From a virus (lineage: Duplodnaviria; Caudoviricetes), in the IMG/VR virus record IMGVR_UViG_2731957577_000001, positions 32,001 to 96,000 of that record: a stretch of 64,000 nt of DNA; one strand, 5' to 3'. The notes under the pieces were generated by a model, which saw only the letters and a program-made list of their open reading frames with translations, did no database searches and was not told the DNA's origin. Position numbers and translations under genes: made by a program. Of this stretch, positions 3 through 63,369 are shown piece by piece. Within the stretch, counting starts at the first letter, position 1; each line of letters opens with the position of its first letter.

Positions 3-1082
3 TATTGGTATTCGGCGCGTGCACAGATCATGGCGGATACTTTTCCAAGCTGGACATATATTCGGCAGTCCTCCAAAAGTATCGGCCAGCTTTTCTTGAA
101 CTTCTTTGGCCTCAAGCTCGAGGAAGTCGAAGAGCAGCTCAATTTGATTGAAAGCCAGAAATATATTGGCACGCTCCAAGTCGAGATGCTCGATTGGATT
201 TATATTTATGAGTTGCCCAGTGTTCAGCCGACCGATGACCTGACACTGTACAACGACGGCCGGCCCATTCCGATTCTGGATACCATCGAGCAGTTCTTCT
301 ACAACGACCTCGATGATGGCGGGATCATCGATTACGACAATCGACGATTTTACTCCCGATTCAAATACGACAAGTTCAGTGGACTCATCAATAACGTGAA
401 TCAGCGTGTTTCCTTTGAGTCCACACCCATTCCACAGCTGCTTTGGAACGCGTTTGACGAATTTGGTCTCCTCGTAGGACTCGCGCGCCTGCCTATGGAG
501 ACCAATGCTCAATTCAAGGAACGCATCCTCGATGTCTTCCGTTATCCGGCTAACTCCGGTGACGAAGGACTCACCAATGGGATTGCCCGCGAACTGGGCC
601 TTGTCCAACGCGTCACATGGGCCAATGATTCGAAGCATCTGTACCTCAAAGGCCGCAGCATTGACCCAAGAAGTCTCCGCGTAGATGGGCAGACGTTGCA
701 ACCCAATGAGTACAAGCAAGATGAGTTCGGCAACATCATCGTCTTGGCTAGAGGAAATGGCGGATCTCACGTGGTCTCGTTCATCGCCGGAATTGAGAAG
801 TATGAGCTACATGATCAAACGAATGAACAACTCTACCAGCTCATGTTTACCCCAGATGGACAGGCAACCCCATTGCTTCGGAATTGGGTGGCATACATTG
901 AGAAAGTGGCGCCGATCATGTGGGGACGGTTCACCTGGGATGAAGGCTCCTGGGACACGATTGACAAGGCGTTTACGGGCCTTGGTTATCTGCCAAACAT
1001 GTGGGACTCCGACATTGAAGTCTGGAAGAACTACACCTTTGATCCAAAGCGGTGGGAGAGTGAAAGTATATGGCGTTCGTGA
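3..1082 (+). CDS. Baseplate wedge/tail-associated structural protein (5' end probably outside window)
   Basis: Frame is open from base 3. Motif FDEFGLLVGLARLPMETNAQFKERILDV resembles the LD..G...G..R...E.D..YR.RI signature of baseplate wedge proteins. Heads a structural operon. Confidence 0.55.
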   Translation, partial: YWYSARAQIMADTFPSWTYIRQSSKSIGQLFLNFFGLKLEEVEEQLNLIESQKYIGTLQVEMLDWIYIYELPSVQPTDDLTLYNDGRPIPILDTIEQFFYNDLDDGGIIDYDNRRFYSRFKYDKFSGLINNVNQRVSFESTPIPQLLWNAFDEFGLLVGLARLPMETNAQFKERILDVFRYPANSGDEGLTNGIARELGLVQRVTWANDSKHLYLKGRSIDPRSLRVDGQTLQPNEYKQDEFGNIIVLARGNGGSHVVSFIAGIEKYELHDQTNEQLYQLMFTPDGQATPLLRNWVAYIEKVAPIMWGRFTWDEGSWDTIDKAFTGLGYLPNMWDSDIEVWKNYTFDPKRWESESIWRS

Positions 1083-33505: not shown

Positions 33506-33534
33506 TTGAAGTGTATTACAACATCGTTTATACT
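33506..33534 (+). promoter_or_regulatory. SigA promoter of helicase operon with operator over the -35/spacer
   Basis: TTGAAG-17-TATACT; TGAAGTGTATTACA at 33507-33520. Confidence 0.65.
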
Positions 33535-33648
33535 CAGGGTGCGAGTGCGTTCCTCCTTTTTGTCGTGGCACGAGGGAATGCCGTCTCCCTTGTGCAAGAA
33601 TCGCTCAAGGCAGCGGCGCTTGCAGAATGGAGACAAGAGGTGAATTCA

Positions 33649-34755
33649 GTGGAAGGCCTCAGCTTTGAAGAAGCCTTGCGGCAAGTACAATGGATGGAGC
33701 AACCCGCTCAACCCCAGGTGCAACAAGAGCCGTTCTCGACGGATGATATAAATCCTCATCGTTTGCGCGTAACCAATCCGGATGGGCTGCTCGGCCGGCC
33801 GCTGAATAAGATTGAGGCCATGATGCTTCAGAACATCGAAGCGGTGGATGAATACGCGTGGTCGCGCGGATCCCGAGGCGGTCTGGATACCGGATGGGAG
33901 CTGTTCAATGACGCCATCGAAGGCGGCTTACAGCCCGGTCTGATTCTCTTTGCCGCGGCACCGAACGTCGGGAAATCGGCCATGATGTTGCAGATTGCAA
34001 AGACAGTCTCAGAGCGAAACGAAAACGTCTATGTATCCTATCACTCACTGGACGACAGTAACAACGAGCTGCTTCCGCGCTACATCGCCTGCGACCAACA
34101 GATCAAGATCGCACAGGCCAAGATGCCTGAAAAGTTCTCGGATCAACCGGAGATCATTGAGAAACGCAACGAAGGGCTTCGGAATCTGTACCGAAACATC
34201 TACCGCTTTGGCATGTATGACTCCGAGAATCTAGGCACCAGTGTGGAAGCGATTGAACAACACATCAAGGACATCCTGATGGAGTTGCCAGAAGGCGTCA
34301 AACTCGTCATCTGCATCGACAGTTTCAATGACCTGACCGTGGAGTCACAGAAGTTTAGCAACAACGATGCGCGCAACGAGTATGTCGCCAAGATGCTCAA
34401 AAGCTGGACGGTTCGATACAACGCCGTCGTCATGTGTACGGCACACCTTCGGAAGACCAATGGCAAACGGCCAACGGTCGACGATCTCAAAGACACGATT
34501 CGACTTCAATACGAAGCCAACCTGATTCTCCTTTTGTACAACGAGGTCGGCATCAAAGAAGAGAATGCCGCGGTGTACTGGATGGATGAAGAAGAAGAGA
34601 CGAAGATGCCCGTCATCGAGTGCAAATTTGCGAAGAACAAGTTCAGTTCCTTTAAGGGAACGCGATTCTATGAGTTCTTCCCAGACTTCTCGTTCATGAT
34701 TGAAGCGCCCATCGAGGCGTGCCGAAGATACGCTTCGCTGATTTATCAAGGCTAG
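33649..34755 (+). CDS. dnaB: DnaB-family (SF4) replicative helicase
   Basis: GLDTGW, Walker A AAAPNVGKS, ICIDS, AHLRK, RPTVDDLKDTIRLQYEAN, AKNK; GAGGTGA RBS then GTG 33649 (track start 33511 lies inside the promoter). Confidence 0.9.
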   Translation: MEGLSFEEALRQVQWMEQPAQPQVQQEPFSTDDINPHRLRVTNPDGLLGRPLNKIEAMMLQNIEAVDEYAWSRGSRGGLDTGWELFNDAIEGGLQPGLILFAAAPNVGKSAMMLQIAKTVSERNENVYVSYHSLDDSNNELLPRYIACDQQIKIAQAKMPEKFSDQPEIIEKRNEGLRNLYRNIYRFGMYDSENLGTSVEAIEQHIKDILMELPEGVKLVICIDSFNDLTVESQKFSNNDARNEYVAKMLKSWTVRYNAVVMCTAHLRKTNGKRPTVDDLKDTIRLQYEANLILLLYNEVGIKEENAAVYWMDEEEETKMPVIECKFAKNKFSSFKGTRFYEFFPDFSFMIEAPIEACRRYASLIYQG

Positions 34756-38144: not shown

Positions 38145-38195
38145 TAATGTGCATTGCATCGAGGTGACTATATACGACGTGGAGGCAAAGGAGCA

Positions 38196-40400
38196 ATGAG
38201 TGTACAGCTACGTGGTTTCCATAGGAAACTCTTTCAGACTCGATATGCTCAAAAGAGCCTGGATAAAGAAAGGTACATTGTACCGGGCGCCGATGTTGTG
38301 ACGTTGATTCGGGATGGGAAGTACCCGGTGCGTGAGACCGCCACCGTTACCCGTGTAGACGGCGAGACCGTTCACATGATCCTCACCAGCGGCGATATGG
38401 TAGGCCAAGAATTCAGCCAGAACATCGCTCATGTGGATGCGCTGGTGGAAACAGAATGGGAGCATGCATCGGAGCGCGTTTCAACCGCTGTGGCCGGGGT
38501 AGAGAAACCCGAAGTCCGCAAGTCCCATCAGAAGAAGTTCCATCATGCCATATCAAACTTTTTATTGATCCCAGCCGGCCGCATCCTCTCTGGCGCCGGA
38601 GATGACTCCTTCGTCACTCTGTTCAACTGCTATGTGACGGCAATCAAGCCACCAAAAGGCCAAGAACGGTATGGTCGCGACAGCCGTCAAGCGATCTTTC
38701 ACACGATGGGCTTCATCACGGAAATCATGGCGCGCGGTGGCGGGAATGGAACCTGTCTATCGGTTCTGCGACCGAAGTATGCGACGTTGTCTCAAACCAA
38801 GGGCAAGTCAGCGGGCGCGGTGCATACCGGCAACATGATCAGCTCCCTCACAGACTGGGTGGAGCAAGCCAACCGTCGTGGGGCCCAGATGCTGACCTTG
38901 CACGACTGGCACCCCGATGTATTCTATACCGCCGATGAAAACGACTCTCTCTATAATGAGGACTTCATTGGTGCCAAGAATAAGCCAGGCTTCATGGAAG
39001 GCAACAATTCCTCCGTTTTGGTGTCCGATGCCTTTATGCATGCGGTCGAACATGATTTGAATTGGGATCTTGTATTTCCGGACACCACGCATCCCGCCTA
39101 CAACCTTGAGTGGGATGGAGACCTCAACAAATGGAAAGCCAAGGGCTATCCGGTCAAAGTCTATCGCACGATCCGCGCGCGAGACATGTGGAAGAAGATC
39201 ATCCACTGCAATTGGCGTTCCGCCGAACCCGGCATCATCTTCATTGACACTTGCAATCGGATGCACAATGGCTGGTACCTCGGCACGATTATGGCCACGA
39301 ACCCATGCGGCGAGCAGCCGATTCTCGATGGCTCGACCTGCAACTTGGGCGCCATCAACTGGGGTCGCATGATTAAGCCGGTTGGAGAAGACGAGCTGGG
39401 AACCATCTATGACGTCGATTGGGATCTGCTGAAAAAGACCGTATGGGCAGGTGTCCGGTTCCTGGATAACGTCATTGACGTCAGCTTTTATTGGGACAAG
39501 GACCTTGAGCGTTGGCAAAAGGGGGAACGCCGTGTCGGCCTTGGCGGCATGGGCATCGCAGACTTCCTCATTGCCATGCGGAAGCGGTATGGCTCCAAAG
39601 AAGGCAACGAACTCATCGAGAAGGTCATGCGGTTCATTCGTGACGAGGCATACCGTTGCTCGATTGAATTGGCCAAGGAGAAAGGGCCATTCCCGTTCTT
39701 TGATCGCGACAAGTATCTGGAGAGTGGCTTCGTCAAGACCCTCCCCGAAGACATCCAGCAAGCGATCTATGAGCATGGCATTCGCAATTTGACCTTGCTG
39801 ACCTTTGCGCCGACCGGTACGACTGGCAGTGTCACGCCGTCCCTGCTCGATCCCGAAGGATCCGTGTCCACGGGTTGCGAACCCCACTTCGCCATGAAAT
39901 ATCACCGGCTTTCGCGGGTGGGTTCGACCATTCAATATGCAGGTGTCGCAAAAACATGGATAGATGAACATCCAGGACAGGAGCTTCCAGAGTGGTTTGT
40001 GGGTGCAATGGATCTCACCCCGGAAGAACACGTGGGTGTCCAAGCCGCGCTCCAGAAGTACGTCGACAGCTCCATTTCTAAGACCGTCAACTGTCCGGCC
40101 GATTACACGGAAGAACAAGTGGCCGAGGTCTACATGCTGTTATACAAGTCCGGCTGCAAAGGCGGGACCATCTATCGGGACGGTTCCCGTTATGAACAGA
40201 TCCTCAGCCTCACGGATGAAGAGGAAGCACCGGAGACGGCGGAAGAAAAGGCCGGGGAGACCAATGAGATGCCGGCGGTTCAAGACAAATATGCCAATTG
40301 GGAGTGCGTCGGTTGCGGCAGCAAATCCTTCGTACTTGTTGAGAATTGCCCGCAATGCACGGAGTGTGGTCTACAAGTGTGTTCCATTGGAGGACATTGA
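38196..40400 (+). CDS. nrdJ: Class II (adenosylcobalamin-dependent) ribonucleotide reductase
   Basis: PAGRIL, LFNCYV, RRGAQM, NPCGEQP, CNLGAIN, APTGT, SISKTVN, YRDGSR; C-terminal CxxC..CxxCxxC; no adjacent beta subunit. Confidence 0.9.
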   Translation: MSVQLRGFHRKLFQTRYAQKSLDKERYIVPGADVVTLIRDGKYPVRETATVTRVDGETVHMILTSGDMVGQEFSQNIAHVDALVETEWEHASERVSTAVAGVEKPEVRKSHQKKFHHAISNFLLIPAGRILSGAGDDSFVTLFNCYVTAIKPPKGQERYGRDSRQAIFHTMGFITEIMARGGGNGTCLSVLRPKYATLSQTKGKSAGAVHTGNMISSLTDWVEQANRRGAQMLTLHDWHPDVFYTADENDSLYNEDFIGAKNKPGFMEGNNSSVLVSDAFMHAVEHDLNWDLVFPDTTHPAYNLEWDGDLNKWKAKGYPVKVYRTIRARDMWKKIIHCNWRSAEPGIIFIDTCNRMHNGWYLGTIMATNPCGEQPILDGSTCNLGAINWGRMIKPVGEDELGTIYDVDWDLLKKTVWAGVRFLDNVIDVSFYWDKDLERWQKGERRVGLGGMGIADFLIAMRKRYGSKEGNELIEKVMRFIRDEAYRCSIELAKEKGPFPFFDRDKYLESGFVKTLPEDIQQAIYEHGIRNLTLLTFAPTGTTGSVTPSLLDPEGSVSTGCEPHFAMKYHRLSRVGSTIQYAGVAKTWIDEHPGQELPEWFVGAMDLTPEEHVGVQAALQKYVDSSISKTVNCPADYTEEQVAEVYMLLYKSGCKGGTIYRDGSRYEQILSLTDEEEAPETAEEKAGETNEMPAVQDKYANWECVGCGSKSFVLVENCPQCTECGLQVCSIGGH

Positions 40401-46785: not shown

Positions 46786-46834
46786 TTGATTTCACACCTT
46801 CTTACGTTTATAATGATTGTGTAATGTATTACAC
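46786..46834 (+). promoter_or_regulatory. SigA promoter with operator at +1
   Basis: TTGATT-17-TATAAT; GTGTAATGTATTACAC at 46819-46834. Confidence 0.8.
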
Positions 46835-46849
46835 GAAGGTTGTGAAGAC

Positions 46850-47707
46850 ATGCCTGTGCTGCAACCGATGATCGATCGGTTCCTTCAACAGAAGCAACAG
46901 CAAAACGACCGCCCGATGCGGAACAAGTTGCATCCATCGACGATCGGCATGTGTCAACGCAAGATCGTCTTTGAGATGATGGTTGTGCCTCGGGCGCTGG
47001 ATCCGCCGCGATTGGCTCGGGTGTTCGACAATGGACACAAGGTTCATGAACGATATGAGCAACTGTTCATGGACATGGGCATCGGAGTGGCACGAGAAGT
47101 TAAACTGGAGAAGGGAGACATCTCAGGTCACACCGATGCCTTGATCAAGCTGTATAGCTTTGCGGCGCCACAGGGCGAATACTGGCTTGTGGAACTCAAA
47201 AGCGCCTCCTCGAAATCCTTTGAGTGGATGGTCAAGAACAACCAACCCAAGAAGGAACACAAAGCGCAACTGACGTTCTACATGCACCTAAGCGGGATCC
47301 ATAAAGGCGTCATCCTGGTGGAGAACAAAGACAACCAGGAGATCTGGGAGTACGAGATGGAGTACGATCCAGTCTTCGGCCAACAGCTTGAACAAAAGGC
47401 ACTGTGGCTGATTGATTTAGCCAAGCACCGCATCCTACCGCCGATCCCAAGGGGTTTTTCGCCGTCTCATTACAAATGCGCCTACTGTCCATTTGCGATG
47501 TATTGCCACTATGGATCCCGAACCGAAGATGGGCAAGAGCGTTACCCGATTCCGTTCATGCCGGGGACGGAAGCGTATCGGGATATACTCAAGATCATCG
47601 AAGCGATGGAGCAAGGCAAGTCGATTCCCAACGTCATTGAAGGGGATACCATCGGGGAATTGATCCAAGAAATGACAAGAAAAAGCCAGACGTATGTCGA
47701 CGCTTAA
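46850..47707 (+). CDS. Cas4-like PD-(D/E)XK exonuclease (solo, phage type)
   Basis: HPSTIGMCQRK, GHKVHE, SGHTD, VELKS, QLTFYM, CAYCPFAMYC. Confidence 0.85.
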   Translation: MPVLQPMIDRFLQQKQQQNDRPMRNKLHPSTIGMCQRKIVFEMMVVPRALDPPRLARVFDNGHKVHERYEQLFMDMGIGVAREVKLEKGDISGHTDALIKLYSFAAPQGEYWLVELKSASSKSFEWMVKNNQPKKEHKAQLTFYMHLSGIHKGVILVENKDNQEIWEYEMEYDPVFGQQLEQKALWLIDLAKHRILPPIPRGFSPSHYKCAYCPFAMYCHYGSRTEDGQERYPIPFMPGTEAYRDILKIIEAMEQGKSIPNVIEGDTIGELIQEMTRKSQTYVDA

Positions 47708-47730: not shown

Positions 47731-48051
47731 ATGAGCATGGTATTCGTCGATGTCGGTTTCAGCAACTTTATGGACGCGAGCAAGATCATTACGATCAGCC
47801 GGCCGGATTCGAGCCCGATCCGCCGGTTAGTCGGCCACGCCAAGGACAACAATCGGTACATCGACCTGACGCAAGGGAAGAAGACCCGTTCGATCATCGT
47901 GAGTGCCGGCGAACAAGGTCTGGTTGTCACCGCTTCTGCGGTCCAGACTTCCACGATTATCGGGCGGATTCGCAAGGCGTTCGAAGACTTGTTTGTCTCC
48001 CGCTTGGATCCCGCTGGCTTGGCGGTGATTGGAGAAGGTGGGTCCGAGTAA
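47731..48051 (+). CDS. remA: RemA (DUF370/YlzA) family matrix/biofilm regulator homolog
   Basis: VGFSNF...KIITI..PDSSPIRRL...AK.....IDLTQGKKTRSIIV...SAVQTSTI..RI. Confidence 0.85.
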   Translation: MSMVFVDVGFSNFMDASKIITISRPDSSPIRRLVGHAKDNNRYIDLTQGKKTRSIIVSAGEQGLVVTASAVQTSTIIGRIRKAFEDLFVSRLDPAGLAVIGEGGSE

Positions 48052-48076
48052 TCCCCAACAAAGGAGCGATGGACGC

Positions 48077-51000
48077 ATGTGCAACCTGGTTCACCTGCAC
48101 GTTCACTCCGAGTTTAGTGAGTTGGACGGGCTCTCCAAGGTGCAAGACCTGGTGGCGCGTGCGAAAGAGATCGGGAGTACCGCCCTGGCCCTAACAGATC
48201 ATGGCGTCATGGGTGGTATTCCCGATTTTATCACCGCATGCGAACAAGCAGGAATCAAACCCATCCCGGGCGTCGAAGCGTATATGACGCGCAACCGGCT
48301 GCTCAAGGGCGAGTTTCTCAAGGAACGCCGGCTGGAGTTGTGCGAGAAATACAAGATCAAGGAGAAGGTCCTCAAGACCTTTATCCGCACCATCGAAAAG
48401 CAGCCGGCCAGCTTCATGGATGAAGCGACGGAACTACTCAAGGACTATCTCATGGCTCCGCCATCGGGCGACCTCTTTCATCTGACGTCGGGCGAGCTAT
48501 CCAAAGACGACGTTCTGAAAGAATTCCATCGGGAGGTCTATGACTATCTCTCGTATGACAACTATCACATCGTCCTGCTGGCGATGAACAATCAAGGGTT
48601 GGAGGATTTGTATGCCATCATCAGCGACGCTCATCTTCATGGATTCTATAGCGATCCTCGCACTGATCTTGCTTTTATTCGCGATCATGGGCTCGGGAAG
48701 AATCTCATTGCGACTTCGGCGTGCCTCGGCTCTTGGTTCGCTCGGCTGTGCCTTGCTGGGCTTATTGATGACGCTGTTGCTTTTATAGAAGAGTGCAAGG
48801 AGACGTTTCATGCGTTTTACCTGGAGAAACAAGCGACCCATCTGCCAGAGCAGATTCAGCTCAACCAGATCATCGACGATTTAGCGGCGCGGACAAACAC
48901 ACCGAAGATCATCACAACCGATGCGCATTATGCCCGCCAAGAGGACATCGACACGCATGACATCCTCATCTCGGTCAACTTCGGCAAGTGCGTCTTGGAT
49001 CCAGATCGCCTCCGTTACGCACCGGAATTCTGGATGAAATCCGAAGAGGAAGTGCGCAGCATTTGCGACGATGAGGAAGCCATTCTCAATACGAAGCGCA
49101 TTGCCGAGATGGTCAATGTCGCGCTTCCGAAGGAGCCGCTATTTCCAAAGTTCATTGTCGAAGAGGGAGACAGCCCGGAAGAGATTTTACGCAAGACAGC
49201 CTGGGATGCGCTGTTCCACTACGTCATCAAGAAGCCAGTGGACCTCGAGCGCTACTGTCAGCAGCTGGCCTATGAACTTGATGTCATTACAAGTCTTGGC
49301 TTTGCCGACTACTTTCTTGTGGTTTCGGACTACATACGCTGGGCGAAACAAAATGGGTATGAAGTCGGGCCTGGACGCGGGTCGGCCGCGGGTTCTCTGG
49401 TCGCATTCATGCTCGACATTACGACACTTGACCCCATCAAAAACAACCTGATGTTCGAGCGGTTCTTGAACCCCGAAAGAGCGGGGTATCCGGACATAGA
49501 TGCAGATTTCAGCTATGAGGCCGCCAAAGCGGTTCAACAGTATCTTAAAGACAAGTATGGCCAGGATCGGGTTGCACAGATTGGCACCTACGGCACCTTC
49601 GCCGCGCGGAAGGTCTGTCGTGCAGTGGGGAAGGCCCTTGGGTATAGCGATCAGGATCAGGACAAGTTTGCCAAGGCCATTCCGGCCAGACCCAACATCA
49701 CCCTCGAGGAAGCCTACAACGAAGAGCCGTTGGTCCAGGCCTACGCTCGCCAGCATCCTGACTGGTGGAACGCCATGAAGAAACTCGAAGGACACATCAG
49801 TCATCATGGTGTGCATGCTGGAGGCGTCGTCCTTTCTCCAGTCCCGTTAACGAAAGTGGTACCGCTTCGTCTGGATAGCGAAGGCCTTGCGACCACGCAA
49901 TACGATATGGAGTGGATTGAGAAGTTCCTGGTCAAGTTCGACATCTTGAAACTCGATACGCTGGATCTCATCAAGTACACCATGCAATACGCGGGCATCT
50001 ATGGGAAAGTCGATCTGAATGAAATTGATCTCAATGACCCGAAGGTGTACGAGGAGATCTACAACAAGCTGAATTTGGCCGGCATCTTTCAGTGCGAGTC
50101 GAAACTTTACCATGACATCATCTCCGCGATGAAGCCGAACTGCTTTGAGGATATCTCGGTCATCGTGGCGCTCGGCCGCCCAGGACCATTGGACCTCATC
50201 CCGGACTACATCGATCGGAAGTGGGGCCGAAAGAAAGTCGAGTACCCATTGCCTGAACTGGAGCCGATTCTCAAAGACACCTATGGAGTCTGGGTGTATC
50301 AAGAACAAATGATGCAGGCCAGCGTCATTCTCGGCGGACTCACACGCGGTCAGTCCGACATGATCCGAAAGGGTGTCGCCAAGAAAAAGCATGACCTCAT
50401 GCACAAGTGGATCGACCTGATGATCTACGGGTCTGAGCGGTACAAAGAGATGCGCCGCGAACACAATGCCATCGTCAATGCGATGAAAGCACGCGGGGAA
50501 GAGGTCCCGAAAGAGATGATGGACAAATACGATCCAGACCTGGATAAGGTTCCGTATGTGGAAGGTGCCATCAACCGGGGTTTTGATGAAGCCACCTTGC
50601 TCAAGATCAAAGAGGACTGGATCAAGTTCGGTAACTACTGCTTCAACCGCGCACACTCGGCTGCATACGCCAAGTTGTCGGTTCAAACGGCATGGCTCAA
50701 GACGTACTATCCTGTCGAGTTCATGGCGGCACTCCTGACCATTGCTGGTGACAAGAAGGCCAAGGATGGCACGCCAAAGACGGTCCTGTATATGCAGGAA
50801 TGCGAGAAGATGGGCATCAAGATTCTGCCGCCGGATATCAATGAATCCAACGCATCTTGGACACCCGTTGTCCATCCGGAAACGTACCAGAATCACCTCA
50901 AGGTCCACGTGGATCTGGGAACGAAGCCGGAAGAAGTGCAACTCAAGCCCGATGCCATTCGCTTTGGTCTGGGCGCCATTGCAGGGATCTCCAAAGAATC

Positions 51001-51547
51001 GGTCGATGAGATCATCAAATATCGTCCGTATACCTCGGTCGATGATGTCGTCGAACGGGTCAGCAGCCGCAAGATCAACAAGAGCAAGATTGTGGCTTTG
51101 ATCAAATCGGGCGCCTTTGACTCGATCAACCCAAACCGAAATCTCTTATGGCGCAATTACATCAAGAGTCGCGGGGAGGACTACGAGGCGATTCCAGCCC
51201 GCACCACCAAGAAAGACATCATGAGCTATGAGCGGGAGTATCTTGGCACCCTCATTACCGTACAGACCCGCTGGGACACGATTCCCAACGGGAAGGAAGA
51301 CGTACAGATCACGGGCTATGTCCTGAAGGTTGAGCCCTTTACGGCCAAGAAAACCGGTAAAGAACATTGCCGAGTCCTCGTGGAGACGCAAGAGGACGAG
51401 CGAAATGTCCTCGTATTCGGGACCAAATGGCAGCAACATAAAGGCCGCTTGGCACCCGGGCTGAAGGTCATTATCAAAGGCAAGAAGTCTGGCGAGGACC
51501 TTTTGGCAGATTCCATTCACTATGTCATGGCTGGGGTGAGCGCATGA
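48077..51547 (+). CDS. dnaE: DNA polymerase III alpha subunit (DnaE type)
   Basis: HLHVHSEFS.LDG, TDHG, GPGRGSAAGSLV, FERFLNPER..PDIDADF, KFDIL, YCFNRAHS, OB-fold end. Confidence 0.97.
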   Translation: MCNLVHLHVHSEFSELDGLSKVQDLVARAKEIGSTALALTDHGVMGGIPDFITACEQAGIKPIPGVEAYMTRNRLLKGEFLKERRLELCEKYKIKEKVLKTFIRTIEKQPASFMDEATELLKDYLMAPPSGDLFHLTSGELSKDDVLKEFHREVYDYLSYDNYHIVLLAMNNQGLEDLYAIISDAHLHGFYSDPRTDLAFIRDHGLGKNLIATSACLGSWFARLCLAGLIDDAVAFIEECKETFHAFYLEKQATHLPEQIQLNQIIDDLAARTNTPKIITTDAHYARQEDIDTHDILISVNFGKCVLDPDRLRYAPEFWMKSEEEVRSICDDEEAILNTKRIAEMVNVALPKEPLFPKFIVEEGDSPEEILRKTAWDALFHYVIKKPVDLERYCQQLAYELDVITSLGFADYFLVVSDYIRWAKQNGYEVGPGRGSAAGSLVAFMLDITTLDPIKNNLMFERFLNPERAGYPDIDADFSYEAAKAVQQYLKDKYGQDRVAQIGTYGTFAARKVCRAVGKALGYSDQDQDKFAKAIPARPNITLEEAYNEEPLVQAYARQHPDWWNAMKKLEGHISHHGVHAGGVVLSPVPLTKVVPLRLDSEGLATTQYDMEWIEKFLVKFDILKLDTLDLIKYTMQYAGIYGKVDLNEIDLNDPKVYEEIYNKLNLAGIFQCESKLYHDIISAMKPNCFEDISVIVALGRPGPLDLIPDYIDRKWGRKKVEYPLPELEPILKDTYGVWVYQEQMMQASVILGGLTRGQSDMIRKGVAKKKHDLMHKWIDLMIYGSERYKEMRREHNAIVNAMKARGEEVPKEMMDKYDPDLDKVPYVEGAINRGFDEATLLKIKEDWIKFGNYCFNRAHSAAYAKLSVQTAWLKTYYPVEFMAALLTIAGDKKAKDGTPKTVLYMQECEKMGIKILPPDINESNASWTPVVHPETYQNHLKVHVDLGTKPEEVQLKPDAIRFGLGAIAGISKESVDEIIKYRPYTSVDDVVERVSSRKINKSKIVALIKSGAFDSINPNRNLLWRNYIKSRGEDYEAIPARTTKKDIMSYEREYLGTLITVQTRWDTIPNGKEDVQITGYVLKVEPFTAKKTGKEHCRVLVETQEDERNVLVFGTKWQQHKGRLAPGLKVIIKGKKSGEDLLADSIHYVMAGVSA

Positions 51548-58230: not shown

Positions 58231-58893
58231 ATGTGCGGACGCTTCACTCAAGCCTTTGAGAACTGGGGAGACGTCTTGAGAACCTTCGGGGTGGTGGACG
58301 ATGGATTCCGCGTGCCGCCCAGATACAACATTGCTCCCTCTCAAGACGTTCCCATCATTATCTCGGATGGGCAAGCCAGACGTATTGGACAGGTCCAATG
58401 GGGGCTGATCCATCCATGGTCTCAGTCATCCAGAAGTCGCATCCGTCCGATCAACACTCGGGCGGAGACACTGTTGGCCAATCGGTGGTTTCGATCCTTG
58501 GTTCCCAAAAAGAGATGCATCGTACCCGTGGACTCTTTCTACGAGTGGCGCCGAAACACCAAACAGCCCTTGCGCATCCAGCTCGAGCGCCGGCCCGTAT
58601 TTGCGCTGGCAGGTATTTATGACGTTTGGCACAGCAAAGACGGCCAAAAGGTCAGTTCCTTTGCCATTGTGACCTGTTCCCCCAATGTTTTTATGCTCGG
58701 GATCCATGACCGCATGCCCGTGATCCTAGATGAAGATGGCGTCAACTTGTGGCTGGATCGTTCCGTGACCGACCCGGAAGTCGTAACCTCCGTCCTCACC
58801 CCCACCACGGAACCTATGAAGGCTTATCCGGTCCACCCGAAAGTCGGAAATGTACGAAATGACGATCCTTCGTGCATCGAACCGTATGAGTGA
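58231..58893 (+). CDS. SOS-response-associated peptidase (SRAP/HMCES/YedK family)
   Basis: N-terminal MCGRF, RYNIAPSQ, INTRAET, FYEW, IHDRMPVIL. Confidence 0.95.
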   Translation: MCGRFTQAFENWGDVLRTFGVVDDGFRVPPRYNIAPSQDVPIIISDGQARRIGQVQWGLIHPWSQSSRSRIRPINTRAETLLANRWFRSLVPKKRCIVPVDSFYEWRRNTKQPLRIQLERRPVFALAGIYDVWHSKDGQKVSSFAIVTCSPNVFMLGIHDRMPVILDEDGVNLWLDRSVTDPEVVTSVLTPTTEPMKAYPVHPKVGNVRNDDPSCIEPYE

Positions 58894-58907
58894 TTTATGA
58901 TAGAATC

Positions 58908-59258
58908 CTACCGACCGAATGATTCACTTCCACCGTACTCTCCGATGGCACACAATGCCTCGGAGAGTCCTTTTTGTCTCGCCTGAACCCTGCGGATCAT
59001 AAAGACTAAATCTTCAATCACCTCTTGATACACTTGGGCTCGGATCGGATCTACATTTGGAAGACGTTCCGTGTAAGCATCAATGAGTTCTTGGAGATCG
59101 TTTTGCTCCTGAGTTGCAGCGTCGATCCACATTTGGACACGCTGACGATCCGCATGTCGTTGCCGTGCTTGTTCCGTCGTGACAACGATATGGCGGATTG
59201 TGTGTTCTTGTGGCAACGGAAATCCGGATGGAATCGAGGGAGAAATCAGAGCATCCAT
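58908..59258 (-). CDS. Hypothetical coiled-coil protein
   Basis: AAGGAGGGGAG RBS on minus strand. Confidence 0.6.
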   Translation of the reverse strand: MDALISPSIPSGFPLPQEHTIRHIVVTTEQARQRHADRQRVQMWIDAATQEQNDLQELIDAYTERLPNVDPIRAQVYQEVIEDLVFMIRRVQARQKGLSEALCAIGEYGGSESFGR

Positions 59259-59331
59259 CCTACATCTCCCCTCCTTGCATTGTTTTCGAGAAAGATAAAA
59301 AAGCCGCCCATACGAAGACGGCTATCGTTTA

Positions 59332-60219
59332 CTACTGCAGATTTTGAACCTCCTTACTTGCACGTTTGTAGAATTGAAGATATTGCCGTTCGTCCTCTTT
59401 CGTATTTTCACTGTTTCCTGTTCCGTCGATCCGTTCATTGTAATCTTGATAAAGCGAGGTCAAGAATACCCATGCTTGAGCAGTGTCGGAGCGTGCCTGA
59501 TAGACTTTAGGATCTTCTTCTGGTGAATATCGATACGAGATTTTGTGATAAACATTCCACCCTTCCCGATTGTGTTCTGAAACATAACTACTCCAATCAG
59601 TTGGATCGGGCACGCCTGCCATTTGTAGTTTCATCCACTGGTAATATTGATTCATGAAGGACAGATAACTTTTTAGATATGCTGCTGAAACACGGGACTT
59701 TATGGGATGAATGTTGAGTTTGAGATTGACCACCTTGCGAGCCTCTAGTTCTTTTTCTCCGTATTCTTTTTTCGCAAGTCGGCCTGTTAAACGCTCTCCA
59801 TTTTGTCCCACTAATTTTAGGATGCCTTTCGACTGGTTTTCGGAATTCGCAAAGAAATCTACGGTGATGACATAAGGCCCCTTCTGCAGTTCTTTCCAGT
59901 TATGCGGTGTGATGGATGCTTGATAATGTCCATTCTGTACCTGCACTGTCTGACTGCTACCGTAGTATTTTTGTGTATTGGCCAAATCAAAATCCACATC
60001 GACGTTTGCACCGTCCGGAAGGTCGGTACTGCCTCTCACGACAATATTACTGCCTTTCGTATAAACAGAATCGATGGTTAACATTGAATACGATTTGTGT
60101 GTAACGACAGTGTTTTTGTGTGTAACCACAGTGTTTTTGGTGGAACTCGATGGTTGGTTACACGCGGTAAGTAATAGCATCGGAATACAAGCCAGGACCC
60201 GATATGCGCGATGAGACAC
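59332..60219 (-). CDS. Lipoprotein of unknown function (AT-richer than flanks)
   Basis: Lipobox LLLTAC; GGGAGG RBS. Confidence 0.8.
   Translation of the reverse strand: MSHRAYRVLACIPMLLLTACNQPSSSTKNTVVTHKNTVVTHKSYSMLTIDSVYTKGSNIVVRGSTDLPDGANVDVDFDLANTQKYYGSSQTVQVQNGHYQASITPHNWKELQKGPYVITVDFFANSENQSKGILKLVGQNGERLTGRLAKKEYGEKELEARKVVNLKLNIHPIKSRVSAAYLKSYLSFMNQYYQWMKLQMAGVPDPTDWSSYVSEHNREGWNVYHKISYRYSPEEDPKVYQARSDTAQAWVFLTSLYQDYNERIDGTGNSENTKEDERQYLQFYKRASKEVQNLQ
60094..60138. repeat. 21-bp tandem duplication (KNTVVTH x2) in lipoprotein linker
   Basis: TTTGTGTGTAAC[G/C]ACAGTGTT twice. Confidence 0.9.
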
Positions 60220-60260
60220 TTTTAATCCTCCCAGACAAAAATTCCATATTTGATGATATC

Positions 60261-60560
60261 CTAACCGATATGCCTTTGGAATACATATTGGATCTGAATC
60301 CCAATGGACTTGATCCCCTGAATCAATATGGGATCATGGGATAGACAACTCGGAGACACACAAACAATCGTCGATACGGTTCCATCCTGAATATCATTCA
60401 AGAGAGCTTGGAATCCTGGACAATCTAGAGTATCACCAGAAGCCCCACAGTCGACGTACTCTTGATAAACAGCGCGTCCGACATGGTCCCGACACGCCTT
60501 CAGTTGGCGTTCGATCTCTGCCATATCCATGAGATCGGTCCGGGCATAGATACCAATCAA
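60261..60560 (-). CDS. Stand-alone serine-recombinase N-terminal-domain protein, probably inactive
   Basis: IGIYARTD (vs YARVS), RQLKACR, YVDCGASG..LDCPGFQALL; catalytic Ser and DRLxR absent. Confidence 0.65.
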   Translation of the reverse strand: MIGIYARTDLMDMAEIERQLKACRDHVGRAVYQEYVDCGASGDTLDCPGFQALLNDIQDGTVSTIVCVSPSCLSHDPILIQGIKSIGIQIQYVFQRHIG

Positions 60561-60578
60561 GCATCGAACCTCCTATGT

Positions 60579-61274
60579 TTAGGCTGGCACAGGAGCCTGG
60601 AGCATCCCGGCTTGGATGAATGCATTCTGCAAATCTACCATCATTTCCTGCATGGCCGGCCAGCCGTCCTGCTTCTTTCGCAACACATAGCTGGGGTGAT
60701 ACGTATGGAGCATCGGGATGCCATTGAACTCTCTCCAGATCCCACGCTCTCGGCTGATCTTCAACCGGCTCCCTTCGGATCGCATGGCCCACATGGCCGG
60801 ATTCCCCAGGGTCACTATGACCTTTGGCTGAACAATCGCGATCTCATTAAACAAGTGCGCGTTGGAACAGCACCGTATCTCATCCATCGTGGGTTGGCGA
60901 TTGTTCACATCCGTCCGGCACTTGACGACGTTCGTGATATACAACCGCCGCCGGTCCACGCCAAGTCTCAACAACGCCCAGGTCAGGAGCTGCCCCGCCG
61001 CGCCGATCAGCGGTAGATCATAGGCCTCCTCTTGTGCGGCCGGCGCCTCCCCAATCAACATGACATCCGCTTGCCAACTCCCTGTACCACGGACTGGGCC
61101 CTGACATCCCAACGCTAACGGACAACGCCGGCATTCACGGATATTAGTGTCCATATAAAATTGCTCATCCACCAGGTGCTGAGTATATTGGTTGACATAC
61201 TGGATCTCCTGGAGCGGATATCCCGCGTTGACCAATTGACGTTCAATCTCAGACCAGTCACGGACGTCCGCCAA
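60579..61274 (-). CDS. Uracil-DNA glycosylase, family 4
   Basis: CRRCPLALGC, IGEAP, YITNVVKCR, NRQP, TYHPSY. Confidence 0.92.
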   Translation of the reverse strand: MADVRDWSEIERQLVNAGYPLQEIQYVNQYTQHLVDEQFYMDTNIRECRRCPLALGCQGPVRGTGSWQADVMLIGEAPAAQEEAYDLPLIGAAGQLLTWALLRLGVDRRRLYITNVVKCRTDVNNRQPTMDEIRCCSNAHLFNEIAIVQPKVIVTLGNPAMWAMRSEGSRLKISRERGIWREFNGIPMLHTYHPSYVLRKKQDGWPAMQEMMVDLQNAFIQAGMLQAPVPA

Positions 61275-61297
61275 GATCCTCCACCTCCATGTTTAAC

Positions 61298-61326
61298 TTG
61301 TCAGCAACTTGTGTCAGACTTATAAT
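61298..61326 (+). promoter_or_regulatory. SigA promoter of putative antitoxin RNA A
   Basis: TTGTCA-17-TATAAT. Confidence 0.75.
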
Positions 61327-61332
61327 GAGTGT

Positions 61333-61473
61333 TGAAGACGGCAATCATAAAAAAAGGCCCCACCAGCAGCCACTGGTGAGGCCTGGCGGGCCGACAAGGC
61401 CTACCCATTGCGCCGAGAGCAAAGCAATCTGTCAGCGGATGGTCGACTGGCCCGAGTCGACCATCATTCATTT
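61333..61473 (+). ncRNA. Putative antisense (antitoxin) RNA A, ~140 nt
   Basis: Lies between the promoter above and the 11-bp hairpin GATGGTCGACT/AGTCGACCATC (61438-61465) plus ATTCATTT; complementary to the 3' UTR of peptide A mRNA. Confidence 0.55.
61349..61383 (-). terminator. Terminator of peptide A mRNA
   Basis: Minus strand GGCCTCACCAG-TGGCTG-CTGGTGGGGCC-TTTTTTT. Confidence 0.8.
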
Positions 61474-61559
61474 ATGATGAACTCAAAGCTGACAGCCAGG
61501 AGCCAGAGGTGTCCAGCTATAGGTACTGGGACGACTCTGATCCGAAGCACTCGCTTCAT
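61464..61559 (-). CDS. Putative type I toxin peptide A (31 aa, MKRVLRIRVVPVPIAGHLWLLAVSFEFIINE)
   Basis: GAGGAGGTG RBS sequestered by a leader stem; own extended -10 (TGCTATACT, 61689-61697 minus) and terminator; paralog at 62134. Confidence 0.7.
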   Translation of the reverse strand: MKRVLRIRVVPVPIAGHLWLLAVSFEFIINE

Positions 61560-61733
61560 CGGCACCACCTCCTCGGCTCACACCTAACGCAACAGGTAGA
61601 GCCGAGTCGGCCCACATCTGTGTGAGCCATAGGAGGTGGCTGGGCCTACAACGGATAGATTCATCTTACGATGAGTCCCGCCACTTCAAGTATAGCATCT
61701 ATATAACCCCATTTCCTAGAAGGAATTCTCAAT

Positions 61734-61979
61734 ATGAGCCGGATTGTCGAACGACCCATTCAATCCATCCAAACCAATGACCGAGGCGAACCGGTGGCAT
61801 GGCTGGATCGCGGTGTGACCCACCGAGTTGTTGAGATTCTCGATGCCTGGAGAGAGGCTGGAAATTGGTGGGAAGACGAACCGAATCGAGCCATGTATCG
61901 TGTGCTTACATCGGAGAACTACGTGTATGATCTCGAAGAATCCGAAGGCAAATGGAAGGTCTATAAAGTGTGGGATTAG
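61734..61979 (+). CDS. DUF6504-like protein
   Basis: P.AW...G..HRV.EILD.W.E.G.WW......YRV......YDL.....W.V.KVWD pattern. Confidence 0.65.
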   Translation: MSRIVERPIQSIQTNDRGEPVAWLDRGVTHRVVEILDAWREAGNWWEDEPNRAMYRVLTSENYVYDLEESEGKWKVYKVWD

Positions 61980-62133
61980 GCCGCCCATTTGATTTCTATT
62001 CTAGATCATGGGCGTGCTATACTAGAAATGACCCATCTCTATAGATGGCCAACGTCTTGTTGTTGGCTGACACCCCCTCGGCTGCTGTGGGACGGTGCGG
62101 CGCCTTGTCGGAGGGCCGAGGGGGTGAGAGTTG

Positions 62134-62226
62134 ATGCGGTGGTTTCGCATTCGCGTGACGCTTTTACCGACCGGCCATGCGTTTCTGCCTTGGATCGTTC
62201 GTGTAGAGCTTACCATAAAGAAGTGA
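62134..62226 (+). CDS. Putative type I toxin peptide B (30 aa, MRWFRIRVTLLPTGHAFLPWIVRVELTIKK)
   Basis: GAGGGGGTG RBS paired with CACCCCCTCGGC (62071-62082); extended -10 TGCTATACT at 62015-62023; paralog of peptide A. Confidence 0.7.
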   Translation: MRWFRIRVTLLPTGHAFLPWIVRVELTIKK

Positions 62227-62331
62227 CGACCGGTTCTCAGCCAACCGGTCGTCGTTAGCGACTCACCATCAACTCCGACAAGCGTTGCACCGTCCGTCGG
62301 GACCCTGCCAGTCAGCCTCTGGCGGGGTCTC
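62216..62331 (-). ncRNA. Putative antisense (antitoxin) RNA B, ~115 nt
   Basis: Minus-strand TTGTTA-18-TATAAT at 62367-62338; ends at 11-bp hairpin 62225-62253 followed by ACTTCTTT on minus. Confidence 0.55.
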
Positions 62332-62340
62332 ATTCTTATT
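62299..62340 (+). terminator. Terminator of peptide B mRNA
   Basis: GGGACCCTGCCAG-loop-CTGGCGGGGTCTC then ATTCTTATT. Confidence 0.65.
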
Positions 62341-62452
62341 ATAGTCAATGTGCGTCTCATGTAACAACATGCTGAAACGAATCCAAAGGTCAATGAACTT
62401 ACTCTCCCAGAGGTCGACCTCTCTAAAAAGCATGATTCATAAAATCATGATT

Positions 62453-63067
62453 CTATGAAATCGCTTCTCCCTCCCGCTCGGGATGCGGACGCAGATCTAC
62501 CTGGGGCGGCTCCTGTGCCTTGCAGTAGAGTTCAATCGGCATGCCCTGGCTCAGCCACTGCGTGAGCTCTTCGATATAGCGGCCGCGCTCAATATATTGT
62601 GCCGCCTGTTTTCGGATCGCAGCTCTGGCCAGTTCTTCTGTCTCCCCAAATGCCTTAAACAAGCAATTCCCGTTAGGTAGCCGCAGCATATAGACGTCGC
62701 CTTTTGGCCACTCGTCGATGGCAATGGCATCATGCCAGCCTTCGTGATAGGCGGCTTGGACAAACTTCAGAGTTCGTAGGCCACTCAAAATCTGCTCTGG
62801 GGTACTTCCCCAATGGGTTTGGAGCTTTTTCAGAAGCTGAGAAGCCCATTGAAAATGAGTATACCGATCCGCCTGGACTTCCGCATGGAACCCATACCAC
62901 TCGTCATACTCCGGGTCCGTTTGCCATTCAAACCGTACTCTATAGTCCGAATACCCTTTGTGTTCCCGGACGACAACCGACAAGTGTTCGTACCGATTAC
63001 CATAGGAATGGCTCGGCGGCAGACGATAAATCAAGAAGTATTTATTGGGACGACGAATCTGCGTCAT
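62453..63067 (-). CDS. Hypothetical protein
   Basis: 204-aa ORF, AAAGGA RBS. Confidence 0.7.
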   Translation of the reverse strand: MTQIRRPNKYFLIYRLPPSHSYGNRYEHLSVVVREHKGYSDYRVRFEWQTDPEYDEWYGFHAEVQADRYTHFQWASQLLKKLQTHWGSTPEQILSGLRTLKFVQAAYHEGWHDAIAIDEWPKGDVYMLRLPNGNCLFKAFGETEELARAAIRKQAAQYIERGRYIEELTQWLSQGMPIELYCKAQEPPQVDLRPHPEREGEAIS

Positions 63068-63089
63068 GAAGGATCATCCTTTCTTGGCA

Positions 63090-63154
63090 TAAAAGGAAGA
63101 CCCCTGTGATTGACTCACAGGGGTCTTGCGCTAAACGGAACTATGAAGTTTGTC
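63090..63154 (-). ncRNA. Putative ~65-nt small RNA / attenuated leader
   Basis: Minus promoter TTGTCA-18-TATTAT with TG extension (63190-63161); 13-bp perfect hairpin 63097-63127 plus CCTTTT. Confidence 0.5.
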
Positions 63155-63174
63155 ACCGACATAATAGCATAGAA

Positions 63175-63188
63175 GTCATAGCTATGAC
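63175..63188. promoter_or_regulatory. Perfect 14-bp palindrome GTCATAGCTATGAC over the -35/spacer of the minus-strand promoter
   Basis: Direct sequence inspection. Confidence 0.5.
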
Positions 63189-63369
63189 AACTGAAAAATA
63201 TCGACTTGGTTCGGCAGGAAATCTTTTCGCCTTAGCGAATATATGCTATGATTCTGTTGCGCTAAACGGAACAGGATGCCTGTACCCTATACAGGTTATC
63301 TACGTCTGTTTTGGCGCACCCATTAACGGTGCGCCTCGATTTTTATAGAGAAAGGAGTGCGGGGATCGA

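Follow-up and report, generated by a model that had tools for sequence, protein, structure and literature searches.

We analysed a window of 64,000 nucleotides from a virus record (IMGVR_UViG_2731957577_000001, positions 32,001 to 96,000), and all coordinates refer to this window. It holds two unannotated cassettes of about 330 nt each, unit A on the minus strand and unit B on the plus strand, on foreign low-GC DNA of an Alicyclobacillus-family genome. The gene between them gives a Pfam match to DUF6504 (E = 3e-7). A previous reading of the sequence alone (the sequence-only reading) had described this gene as flanked by two divergent units. Its position is as described. DUF6504 is nevertheless not a component of the cassette, because homologous cassettes elsewhere have different, unrelated neighbours. 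The gene for uracil-DNA glycosylase (UDG) begins 75 nt after unit A on the same strand, and the genes downstream of unit B and of the homologues are convergent or unrelated. In a consensus scan of 61100-62600, we found five promoter-like sites (1.3 ± 1.1 in shuffles) and nine terminator-like sites (0.9 ± 0.8 in shuffles).

Unit A would be read from an extended -10 promoter (TGCTATACT, 61689-61697, minus strand) recognized by its sequence, with a predicted transcription start near 61682. The MFE fold places a stem-loop at the 5' end of the mRNA (61661-61674), and unit B and homologues have an equivalent one. It is followed by a leader hairpin (61563-61640), in which the anti-SD arm (approximately 61620-61640) pairs with the SD arm (61563-61584). 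The ribosome-binding region is largely paired, with a mean P(unpaired) of 0.09-0.23. The small ORF for the A-type peptide (61464-61559) consists of 31 codons and a stop codon at good SD-start spacing, and homologous peptides occur in A. fodiniaquatilis and two more genomes. An 11-bp perfect hairpin detected by the repeat finder starts from the stop codon (61438-61448/61455-61465). Read on the plus strand, it is terminator-like in the consensus scan and is predicted to terminate antisense RNA A. The mRNA ends in a GC-rich terminator of 13 pairs with a U7 tract (61348-61384, stem 61355-61384). Just upstream of it, CCGCC at 61385-61389 is the pairing partner of GGCGG at the 5' terminus of the mRNA. 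Beyond the terminator lies a convergent promoter on the plus strand (61298-61326; TTGTCA-17-TATAAT, 11/12 matches). From this promoter and the hairpin terminator, we infer an antisense RNA A of about 145 nt (61333-61477, plus strand; fold z = -5.2), which would be complementary to the 3'UTR of unit A, its stop codon, and the final codons of ORF A. The predicted unit A transcript itself folds far better than shuffles (z = -8.8).

Unit B has the same elements in the same order on the plus strand. Its extended -10 promoter (TGCTATACT, 62015-62023), again recognized by sequence, predicts a transcription start near 62030. The helix of the 5'-terminal stem-loop (62033-62048) is invariant in five homologues. 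The anti-SD/SD hairpin (62071-62126) is closed by a perfect 12-bp helix between 62071-62082 and 62115-62126, and its loop contains the leader arm (62089-62113) of a long-range helix. The ORF of the B-type peptide (62131-62226) starts with ATG at 62134 or TTG at 62131, which gives 30-31 codons plus stop, with good SD-start spacing. The 11-bp perfect stop-codon hairpin (62225-62235/62243-62253) shows two compensatory pairs among homologues and is predicted to terminate antisense RNA B on the minus strand. The 3'UTR arm of the long-range helix (62268-62298) is the most conserved segment of the cassette, with 86% identity between lineages compared with 31% in the adjoining spacer. The mRNA terminator and its tail follow (62299-62340, stem 62299-62331), again GC-rich and with 13 pairs. 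The convergent promoter on the minus strand (62338-62367; TTGTTA-18-TATAAT, 10/12 matches) would give an antisense RNA B of about 119 nt with three stem-loops (62213-62331; fold z = -3.0). The fold of the predicted unit B transcript is far better than that of shuffles (z = -6.9).

The elements listed by the sequence-only reading are thus all present at the positions that it gave. The shared extended -10 is returned by the repeat finder as a 16-nt inverted repeat with 88% complementarity. The leader stems that bury the SD lie where they had been placed in both units, and the short ORFs, the GC-rich terminators, and the near-consensus convergent promoters beyond them were all recovered in A and B. 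The architecture is confirmed, and homologues from at least five Alicyclobacillus species share it.

The consensus fold of the mRNA comprises 98 pairs. In this fold, 95.3% of the cells are paired, compared with 33-49% for slid partners. Compensatory changes occur at nine pairs, a covariation that is based on five sequences, three of them close relatives. The long-range helix between leader and 3'UTR accounts for 24 pairs (96.6% of the cells paired, two compensatory pairs). Between lineages, the UTR arms are 79-86% identical, the ORF 73%, and the spacer 31%. The SD-sequestering hairpin and the leader/3'UTR helix recur in all subtypes, and anti-SD/SD helices are found in all intact copies. The predicted folds persist at 55-65 °C. 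The ribosome-binding site is mostly paired, and the SD is exposed in none of the modelled states. As modelled, translation of the mRNA is intrinsically repressed by SD sequestration combined with long-range folding. A cmscan of 60500-63200 on both strands (E ≤ 10) gave three sub-threshold, chance-level matches, none of which was to a TA system.

Such strong RNA structure could also be expected of a non-coding element, either a structured or mobile RNA or a leader-peptide attenuator of a downstream gene, and for the latter unit A is suitably placed ahead of UDG. We regard this explanation as very improbable. The pattern of codon positions and the conservation of the peptide between subtypes indicate a coding sequence. 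A common downstream target is absent, as unit B and the homologues precede convergent or unrelated genes, and the attenuator reading was ruled out for this reason. An IS or MITE was likewise ruled out, since terminal inverted repeats, an Rfam match, and a transposase signal are all absent.

From sequence comparison, the ORF of 27-34 codons is protein-coding and under purifying selection. Among the four full-length B-type homologues, the variable columns are distributed over the codon positions as 11/5/17, and synonymous and non-synonymous codon changes occur at about 1:1. The subtypes resemble each other as peptides and not as DNA. Conservation of the ORF in homologues had been named as a check by the sequence-only reading, and both the frame and the SD are kept in every intact copy. 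Gene callers miss the ORFs of the cassettes.

The peptides are cationic and basic at the N-terminus. A central Gly-His and a Glu close to the C-terminus are invariant. Their hydrophobicity is moderate (best 19-residue Kyte-Doolittle window 1.06-1.61), and the core contains two or three prolines. AlphaFold2 predicts two-stranded amphipathic beta-hairpins with the Gly-His at the turn (pLDDT 83.5 for A and 70.3 for B). All known membrane type I toxins possess an alpha-helical transmembrane domain (PMC8309996). Such a hydrophobic helix is absent from the predictions for the A and B peptides. Searches with the peptides gave no family in Pfam-A (E ≤ 1) or NCBIfam (E ≤ 10), nothing in the PDB with Foldseek and the hairpin model (E ≤ 0.001), and no usable match in a feature search of the ESM Atlas. 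Among 1.84 billion representative proteins, the single match is to an unnamed ORF of the same cassette family, and about 15 billion predicted proteins likewise gave only one such ORF. The family had been called unrecognized, and matches of the units to Pfam, NCBIfam, and Rfam are indeed all absent.

On the opposite strand, an exact TATAAT is located within 45 nt past the terminator in six of seven lineages. The same hexamer occurs in 0.3% of all 45-nt windows and in 2.2% of the AT-rich ones. As the flanks cannot otherwise be aligned, its presence at the same spot in 6/7 of them is very unlikely to be due to chance. In five of the seven loci scanned, the stop-codon hairpin scores as a terminator on the opposite strand. 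In both units of the window, the convergent promoters match 10-11 of 12 positions and are accompanied by such terminators. The BLAST homology between unit B and A. cellulosilyticus runs through the antisense promoter and ends there.

A stand-alone peptide gene with a structured mRNA and no antisense RNA would explain part of these data, with TATAAT and the hairpin tail arising incidentally from AT-rich terminator flanks and A-rich lysine or aspartate codons. In its favour, a two-hexamer scan for full -35/-10 convergent promoters found none in the homologues and only those in the window units. In the homologues, the antisense -10 is conserved and the -35 regions vary between lineages, and the chromosomal lineage (C61, A. 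herbarius, and A. kakegawensis) has only near-matches to this -10. The U-tracts of the antisense terminators are also short. The T-rich tail on the opposite strand, which the sequence-only reading had ascribed to the stop-codon hairpins, shrinks to 3-4 U here, although the 11-bp perfect hairpins and the terminator call stand. We consider this explanation improbable in view of the fixed position of TATAAT, the near-complete promoter matches in both window copies, and the homology with A. cellulosilyticus that spans the promoter and then stops. It also leaves open why 3' modules outlive the ORF, as described below.

A and B are members of one cassette family, and a chance resemblance is excluded. 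By sequence searches, this family is previously undescribed and found only in Alicyclobacillaceae. It comprises about ten intact copies, several decayed ones, and at least three subtypes. With a peptide HMM and a covariance model, matches of the A type and of further subtypes were obtained in 12 of 44 other Alicyclobacillaceae genomes, and the same models found no convincing member elsewhere in a class-level genome sample. Peptide-HMM matches outside the family (G104, G078, G404, G069, and G098) were weak and judged to be chance, as were three weak matches within larger ORFs (L154, L156, and L158). Scanning genome contigs with a 16-base pattern gave chance matches only, and scans with longer patterns gave Alicyclobacillus records only, plus two likely chance matches. 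Full-length homologues of unit B (72-85% identity) are present in A. cellulosilyticus, A. kakegawensis, and A. herbarius, and contig C61 of the source genome carries a third copy that is homologous to unit B. The TGn-TAnnnT element of the sense promoters recurs in homologues with the same spacing to the ORF.

The sequence-only reading had regarded A and B as a diverged duplicate pair, which is overstated. Their peptides are about 38% identical, a likeness that is visible in the multiple alignment and the HMM. BLAST aligned A and B neither as DNA nor, with BLASTP, as peptides, and the closest relatives of each are in other species. Judged by these sequence relationships, A and B are separate subtypes of one family rather than the result of a recent duplication.

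The source genome contains three intact copies and at least two remnants, and its low-GC contigs hold all the intact ones. Cassette-bearing contigs have 47-52% GC compared with about 60.5% for chromosomal contigs. Contig C7 has phage-like replication genes, and the foreign DNA that carries copies in the source genome includes a 198-kb contig with these genes. The location of intact copies on such foreign DNA fits the likeness to the prophage-borne systems of Bacillus. Phage and plasmid collections yielded no blastn match to the 1.1-kb region. A LexA-type box, which would point to SOS control, is absent upstream of A, B, and most homologues and is present only in the G042/G050 subtype. The distribution of the family is patchy and multi-copy, often on mobile DNA, as in the type I class. 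In several decayed copies, the 3' (antisense) module survives and the ORF, or the 5' portion of it, is gone. These copies are in G041, G002 contig C15, G046, and contig C60 of the source genome.

The cassette may instead be an antisense-regulated gene for a small protein that is not a toxin. Such a protein would have a physiological or element-specific role, for example as a regulator or a beta-strand-addition partner, and the RNA layers would only tune its level. The purifying selection on the ORF is compatible with this, and the low hydrophobicity and predicted beta-hairpin of the peptide are atypical for type I toxins. One lineage also occupies a syntenic locus in three species, as expected of a maintained function. 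On the other hand, the patchiness, the several subtypes per genome, the frequent decay, and the low-GC location suit selfish modules better. Triple-layer repression of a 30-residue peptide is a hallmark of toxin mRNAs, and orphan 3' modules are kept after the ORF is lost. We judge a non-toxin role unlikely, though well above the two alternatives considered so far.

The layout of the cassettes is that of Gram-positive type I systems, because the predicted antisense RNA is 3'-sided and overlaps the mRNA, as is general in those families (PMC8594479). In TxpA/RatA, BsrG/SR4, BsrE/SR5, BsrH/as-BsrH, and YonT/SR6 of B. subtilis, a convergent antisense RNA of about 100-200 nt, like the one predicted here, overlaps the small-ORF mRNA at its 3' end and reaches into the last part of the ORF (PMC8594479, PMC5848175). 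The prophage and prophage-like systems of B. subtilis also share the location on foreign elements, a structured mRNA, and limited access to the SD. Dependence on double-strand cleavage is expected as a further shared trait, in agreement with PMC3531473. The B. subtilis toxins have a transmembrane helix and a lysine-rich C-terminus, whereas the cassette peptides are basic at the N-terminus, only moderately hydrophobic, and predicted to form a beta-hairpin. Neither the peptides nor the RNAs are similar in sequence, and the extensive fold-back between leader and 3'UTR sets the cassettes apart. Thus, the proposed likeness to Bacillus prophage systems holds for layout and foreign-DNA location and fails for the peptides, which are unlike TxpA, BsrG, and BsrE.

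Fold-back closure is a principle known from hok mRNA. The Gram-negative systems Hok/Sok, AapA1/IsoA1, DinQ, and ZorO have the same 5'-3' long-distance closure and SD sequestration (PMC6733600, PMC5066626). Hence, the primary transcript of the cassettes is expected to stay inactive until it has been processed or refolded. Only this principle is common to both, as peptides and RNAs are unrelated, the phylum differs, and there is no Pfam match. In Hok/Sok-type systems, the antisense RNA is 5'-sided or internal to the mRNA, whereas it is predicted at the 3' end in the cassettes, which also lack an overlapping leader ORF such as mok of Hok/Sok. Fst/RNAII (par of pAD1) and SprA1/SprA1as share with the cassettes the Gram-positive convergent transcription (predicted for the cassettes), a peptide of about 30 residues, and a 5' structure that limits translation. 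The par RNAs have a common bidirectional terminator and make contact via 5' direct repeats outside the overlap (PMC8594479). In contrast, each cassette RNA has its own terminator, and pairing is predicted over more than 100 nt of overlap. The A-P-x3-G helix motif of the Fst type (PMC8309996) is absent from the cassette peptides. Rfam covariance models of antitoxin RNAs (TxpA/RatA, Fst/RNAII, SprA1as, and others) did not match the antisense region. In the literature, we found no paper that ties Alicyclobacillus to type I TA systems and none that mentions DUF6504.

We favour, with slightly more confidence than doubt, the reading of A and B as subtypes of a new type I toxin-antitoxin-like family that is restricted to Alicyclobacillaceae, resides on foreign DNA, and has a predicted 3'-overlapping antisense RNA. 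It builds on the observed sequence elements and their conservation, on the selection for coding and the covariation of the RNA, and on how the copies are distributed, decay, and reside on foreign DNA. That the antisense RNA is transcribed, that it acts on the mRNA, and that the peptide is toxic are predictions from the sequence, and the role in element maintenance or abortive infection proposed by the sequence-only reading is likewise hypothetical. In each unit, the extended -10 promoter would give an mRNA of approximately 310-335 nt, in which a protective 5' stem-loop, the SD-burying leader hairpin, the ORF, the stop-codon hairpin, a 3'UTR folding onto the leader, and the GC-rich terminator follow one another. 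The convergent promoter past the terminator would produce an antisense RNA of 115-145 nt ending at the stop-codon hairpin, with its U-tail as the other strand of the A-rich final ORF codons. The full-length mRNA would be translationally inert because its SD is paired in every modelled state. The antisense RNA would pair with the 3' end of the mRNA over more than 100 bp. This duplex would expose the mRNA to double-strand-specific cleavage and displace the leader arm, whereupon the local anti-SD hairpin would close. Upon loss of the short-lived antisense RNA, e.g., by loss of the element or under stress, some mRNA would be processed or refolded and translated. The peptide would then harm the cell, with the membrane as the probable site.

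A more specific version of this mechanism can be put forward tentatively, and we hold it to be rather unlikely. The toxin would be a cationic amphipathic beta-hairpin of about 30 residues instead of a transmembrane helix and would act by a mechanism new to the class, for example as an oligomeric beta-sheet pore or on a non-membrane target. In its mRNA, a 5'-3' fold-back like that of hok would be joined to the control by a 3'-overlapping antisense RNA that is typical of Gram-positive bacteria. Part of the action of this RNA would be to mimic the leader arm and compete for the 3'UTR.

To our knowledge, the annotation of type I systems is incomplete, and nearly all those described come from Proteobacteria and a few Firmicutes models. 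The known type I repertoire would be widened by a family of the thermo-acidophilic Alicyclobacillaceae with at least three subtypes and many decay intermediates. It would also provide a natural series for the gain, divergence, and death of such modules, from the intact pair via the orphan antisense module to hairpin remnants. The leader arm and the antisense RNA, as alternative partners of one 3'UTR segment, would be a compact example of an RNA conformational switch with a structure predicted to be stable at 55-65 °C. If the peptides truly fold as beta-hairpins, they would be the first small toxins of the type I class other than helical membrane peptides.

All elements that the sequence-only reading had listed for units A and B are present, as found by reading positions 60900-62800 and using the ORF list, a consensus scan, and a repeat finder. 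Unit A, on the minus strand, starts with an extended -10 element (TGCTATACT, 61689-61697). In its leader of ~120 nt, an anti-SD arm (~61620-61640) is paired with the SD arm (61563-61584). This is followed by an ORF of 31 codons (61559..61464), an 11-bp perfect hairpin that begins at the stop codon (61438-61465), and a terminator whose 13 pairs are followed by a U7 tract (61348-61384). In unit B, which is on the plus strand, the extended -10 element has the same nine letters (62015-62023), and the anti-SD and SD arms form a perfect helix of 12 bp (62071-62082 with 62115-62126). Its ORF has 30-31 codons (62131/62134..62226), its stop codon lies at a perfect 11-bp hairpin (62225-62253), and its terminator has 13 pairs (62299-62331). 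Just past each terminator, a promoter is found on the opposite strand: TTGTCA-17-TATAAT for unit A (61298-61326, 11/12 matches) and TTGTTA-18-TATAAT for unit B (62367-62338, 10/12 matches). The consensus scan gave 5 promoter-like sites in the 1.5-kb stretch around the units vs 1.3 in shuffles, and 9 terminator-like sites vs 0.9. The gene between the units encodes a DUF6504 protein.

TxpA/RatA, BsrE-G-H, YonT/SR6, and SprG/SprF consist of a small ORF and a convergent antisense RNA that overlaps the 3' end together with the last part of the ORF (PMC8594479). The cassettes have the same predicted layout. We read them as a new type I toxin-antitoxin (TA) family with a 3'-overlapping antisense RNA, and we give this reading slightly better than even chances. 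Neither the peptide profiles nor Rfam gave a match that would place the cassettes in one of the compared toxin families, and the literature search turned up no paper that describes type I systems in Alicyclobacillus.

Homologues that span the full length of unit B (~330 nt, 72-85% identity) are found in A. cellulosilyticus, A. kakegawensis, and A. herbarius, and on contig C61, which carries the third copy of the window's own genome. The copies on C61 and in A. herbarius and A. kakegawensis have common flanks and are orthologous. For unit A, BLAST detected no relative. A peptide HMM, applied to translations in all six frames, picked up an A-type cassette in A. fodiniaquatilis, which shares the promoter, 5' hairpin, anti-SD/SD hairpin, stop-codon hairpin, terminator, and opposite-strand TATAAT with unit A. 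It also found copies that have diverged more, in three additional genomes from the family Alicyclobacillaceae. The 3' (antisense) module, searched as a covariance model, matched in 12 of 44 other family genomes, including a third peptide subtype (genome G020) and several decayed copies; one weak match was in the sister family. Outside the family, a 400-genome sample of the class gave no convincing match. Cassette neighbours are unrelated between genomes; therefore, DUF6504 does not belong to the module. The twin-cassette finding is real, and its support is better than a single-window reading could give.

The G020 copy (locus L176, ~1270-1500, minus) has an SD and anti-SD, a 3' module, and an opposite-strand TATAAT; its usual stop codon is lost, which extends the ORF to ~41 codons. 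In genomes G011 and G059 (loci L006, ~1500-1575, and L013), the B-type remnant is the anti-SD/SD leader hairpin only, and the ORF has shrunk to 8 codons. The remnant immediately follows the stop codon that ends an ABC-transporter gene. This hairpin may now serve as a terminator. In the G042/G050 copies (L153, ~1345-1360, and L155), a 14-nt palindrome overlaps the -35 region of the sense promoter and agrees at 13/14 positions with the Bacillus LexA-box consensus. The palindrome is limited to this subtype and absent from all other copies, including A and B. By analogy with tisB or dinQ, the subtype might be SOS-inducible.

The window lies on contig C7 (198 kb), which has a GC content of 52.4%; the chromosomal contigs have ~60.5%, C60 52.9%, and C61 46.6%. 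Encoded in the window are a DnaE-like polymerase (48029-51547), a Cas4-type exonuclease (46817-47707), a second exonuclease, a DnaB-like helicase (33511-34755), a ribonucleotide reductase (38154-40400), a thymidylate kinase, a replication initiator (63370-), and giant PA14/VWA surface proteins (1070-9544, 18695-23647). An HK97-capsid match at C7:180651 is borderline. C7 is probably a large phage-like or plasmid-like element. Given the low GC of C7 and C61 and the phage-like genes on C7, the intact copies in this genome are thus all on foreign DNA. Phage and plasmid collections contained no DNA similar to the cassette region. Around the cassettes is a DNA-damage-related gene cluster (58231-61979) with genes for SRAP, an SOS response-associated peptidase (58231-58893), a family-4-like uracil-DNA glycosylase (60579-61274, minus), and DUF6504 (61734-61979), and a truncated N-terminal fragment of a serine recombinase (60261-60560, minus). 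Just outside unit B, a 14-nt perfect palindrome (62409-62422) adjoins a 13-nt direct repeat pair (92% identical) that forms overlapping palindromes (62426-62459). These repeats sit between the unit B antisense promoter and the end of a minus-strand gene of 204 residues, and may be an operator or a terminator.

The predicted mRNAs fold with z = -6.9 (B) and -8.8 (A) vs dinucleotide shuffles, and both folds are kept at 55-65 °C, the growth range of the family. For five B-type transcripts, RNAalifold gave 98 pairs, among them a 24-pair helix of the leader (62089-62113) with the 3'UTR (62268-62298). Standard pairs fill 95.3% of the cells of this structure vs 33-49% with the partners slid by 1-3 columns. 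Compensatory changes occur at nine pairs; the long-range helix and the stop-codon hairpin have two such pairs each. As the sample is five sequences, three of them closely related, covariation is supportive rather than conclusive of selection on the B-type RNA structure. Between the two B lineages, identity is 86% in the 3'UTR arm of the long-range helix, 79% from anti-SD to SD, 73% in the ORF, and 31% in the spacer adjoining the 3'UTR arm. The leader/3'UTR closing helix is also in the MFE folds of the A-type and the G042 subtype. We modelled the full-length mRNA, the mRNA with a blocked 3'UTR, and the nascent transcript. The ribosome-binding region is mostly paired in all three (mean P(unpaired) 0.06-0.39); therefore, the primary transcript is predicted to be poorly translatable. 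In hok, aapA1, and dinQ, a 5'-3' fold-back comes with SD sequestration, a principle common to the predicted folds of the cassettes.

For the antisense gene, an exact TATAAT lies on the opposite strand ≤45 nt past the terminator in 6 of 7 lineages whose flanks are otherwise unalignable. Across the window's genome, 0.3% of all 45-nt windows contain this motif, and 2.2% of the AT-rich ones do. By BLAST, unit B is homologous to the A. cellulosilyticus copy through the predicted antisense promoter and no further. The chromosomal lineage (C61, A. herbarius, A. kakegawensis) has near-matches to the antisense -10 only, and a two-hexamer scan found a complete convergent promoter in the window only, not in the scanned homologous loci. 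The stop-codon hairpin was called an opposite-strand terminator in 5 of 7 loci by the consensus scan, with a short U-tail that comes from the A-rich last ORF codons. The predicted antisense RNAs (~119 nt for B, 145 nt for A) form stem-loop folds with z = -3.0 (B) and -5.2 (A). If the weak antisense terminators are read through, plus-strand transcription from the antisense A promoter would continue into DUF6504 and from there into unit B. On the minus strand, transcription from the antisense B promoter would cross DUF6504 in the antisense direction and reach unit A. Such read-through could couple the two cassettes transcriptionally. In G041, G002 (contig C15), G046, G044, and on C60 of the window's genome, the 3' module is kept and the ORF, its 5' half, or the promoter and leader are lost.

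In five B-type copies, variable columns are distributed 11/5/17 over codon positions 1/2/3, with about as many synonymous as non-synonymous codon differences. In every intact copy, the start codon still follows a strong SD, and the ORF has 27-34 codons. The A and B peptides have ~38% of residues in common, with an invariant Gly-His mid-peptide and an invariant Glu near the C-terminus; their DNA gave no BLAST alignment. Judged from these sequences, the cassette ORF is coding. No Pfam or NCBIfam model matches any cassette peptide, and when 1.84 billion representative proteins were searched with a profile, the only match was an unnamed ORF of 31 residues. It comes from a sequencing-run assembly and has the context of the A. 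cellulosilyticus copy. Therefore, the family is essentially unannotated.

The peptides are cationic (net charge +1 to +5), their best 19-residue hydropathy window reaches only 1.06-1.61, and the core contains two or three prolines. Given an alignment of nine sequences, AlphaFold2 models the A-type peptide as a beta-hairpin of two strands (2-15 and 18-30, mean pLDDT 83.5) with the invariant Gly-His at the turn; its model of the B-type peptide is a similar hairpin of lower confidence (pLDDT 70.3). By eye, polar and hydrophobic residues alternate in both strands. Fold and embedding searches with the peptide gave no match. According to a recent review (PMC8309996), the transmembrane domain is alpha-helical in every known membrane type I toxin, which makes the classical membrane-toxin reading less confident. 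The main rival is that the cassettes encode an antisense-regulated small protein and not a toxin, which we consider rather unlikely; retention of an orphan antitoxin, for which the 3' modules kept in decayed copies are candidates, is what TA decay would predict. For the type I TA reading, the peptide's departure from the helical toxins would mean greater novelty if its toxicity is confirmed.
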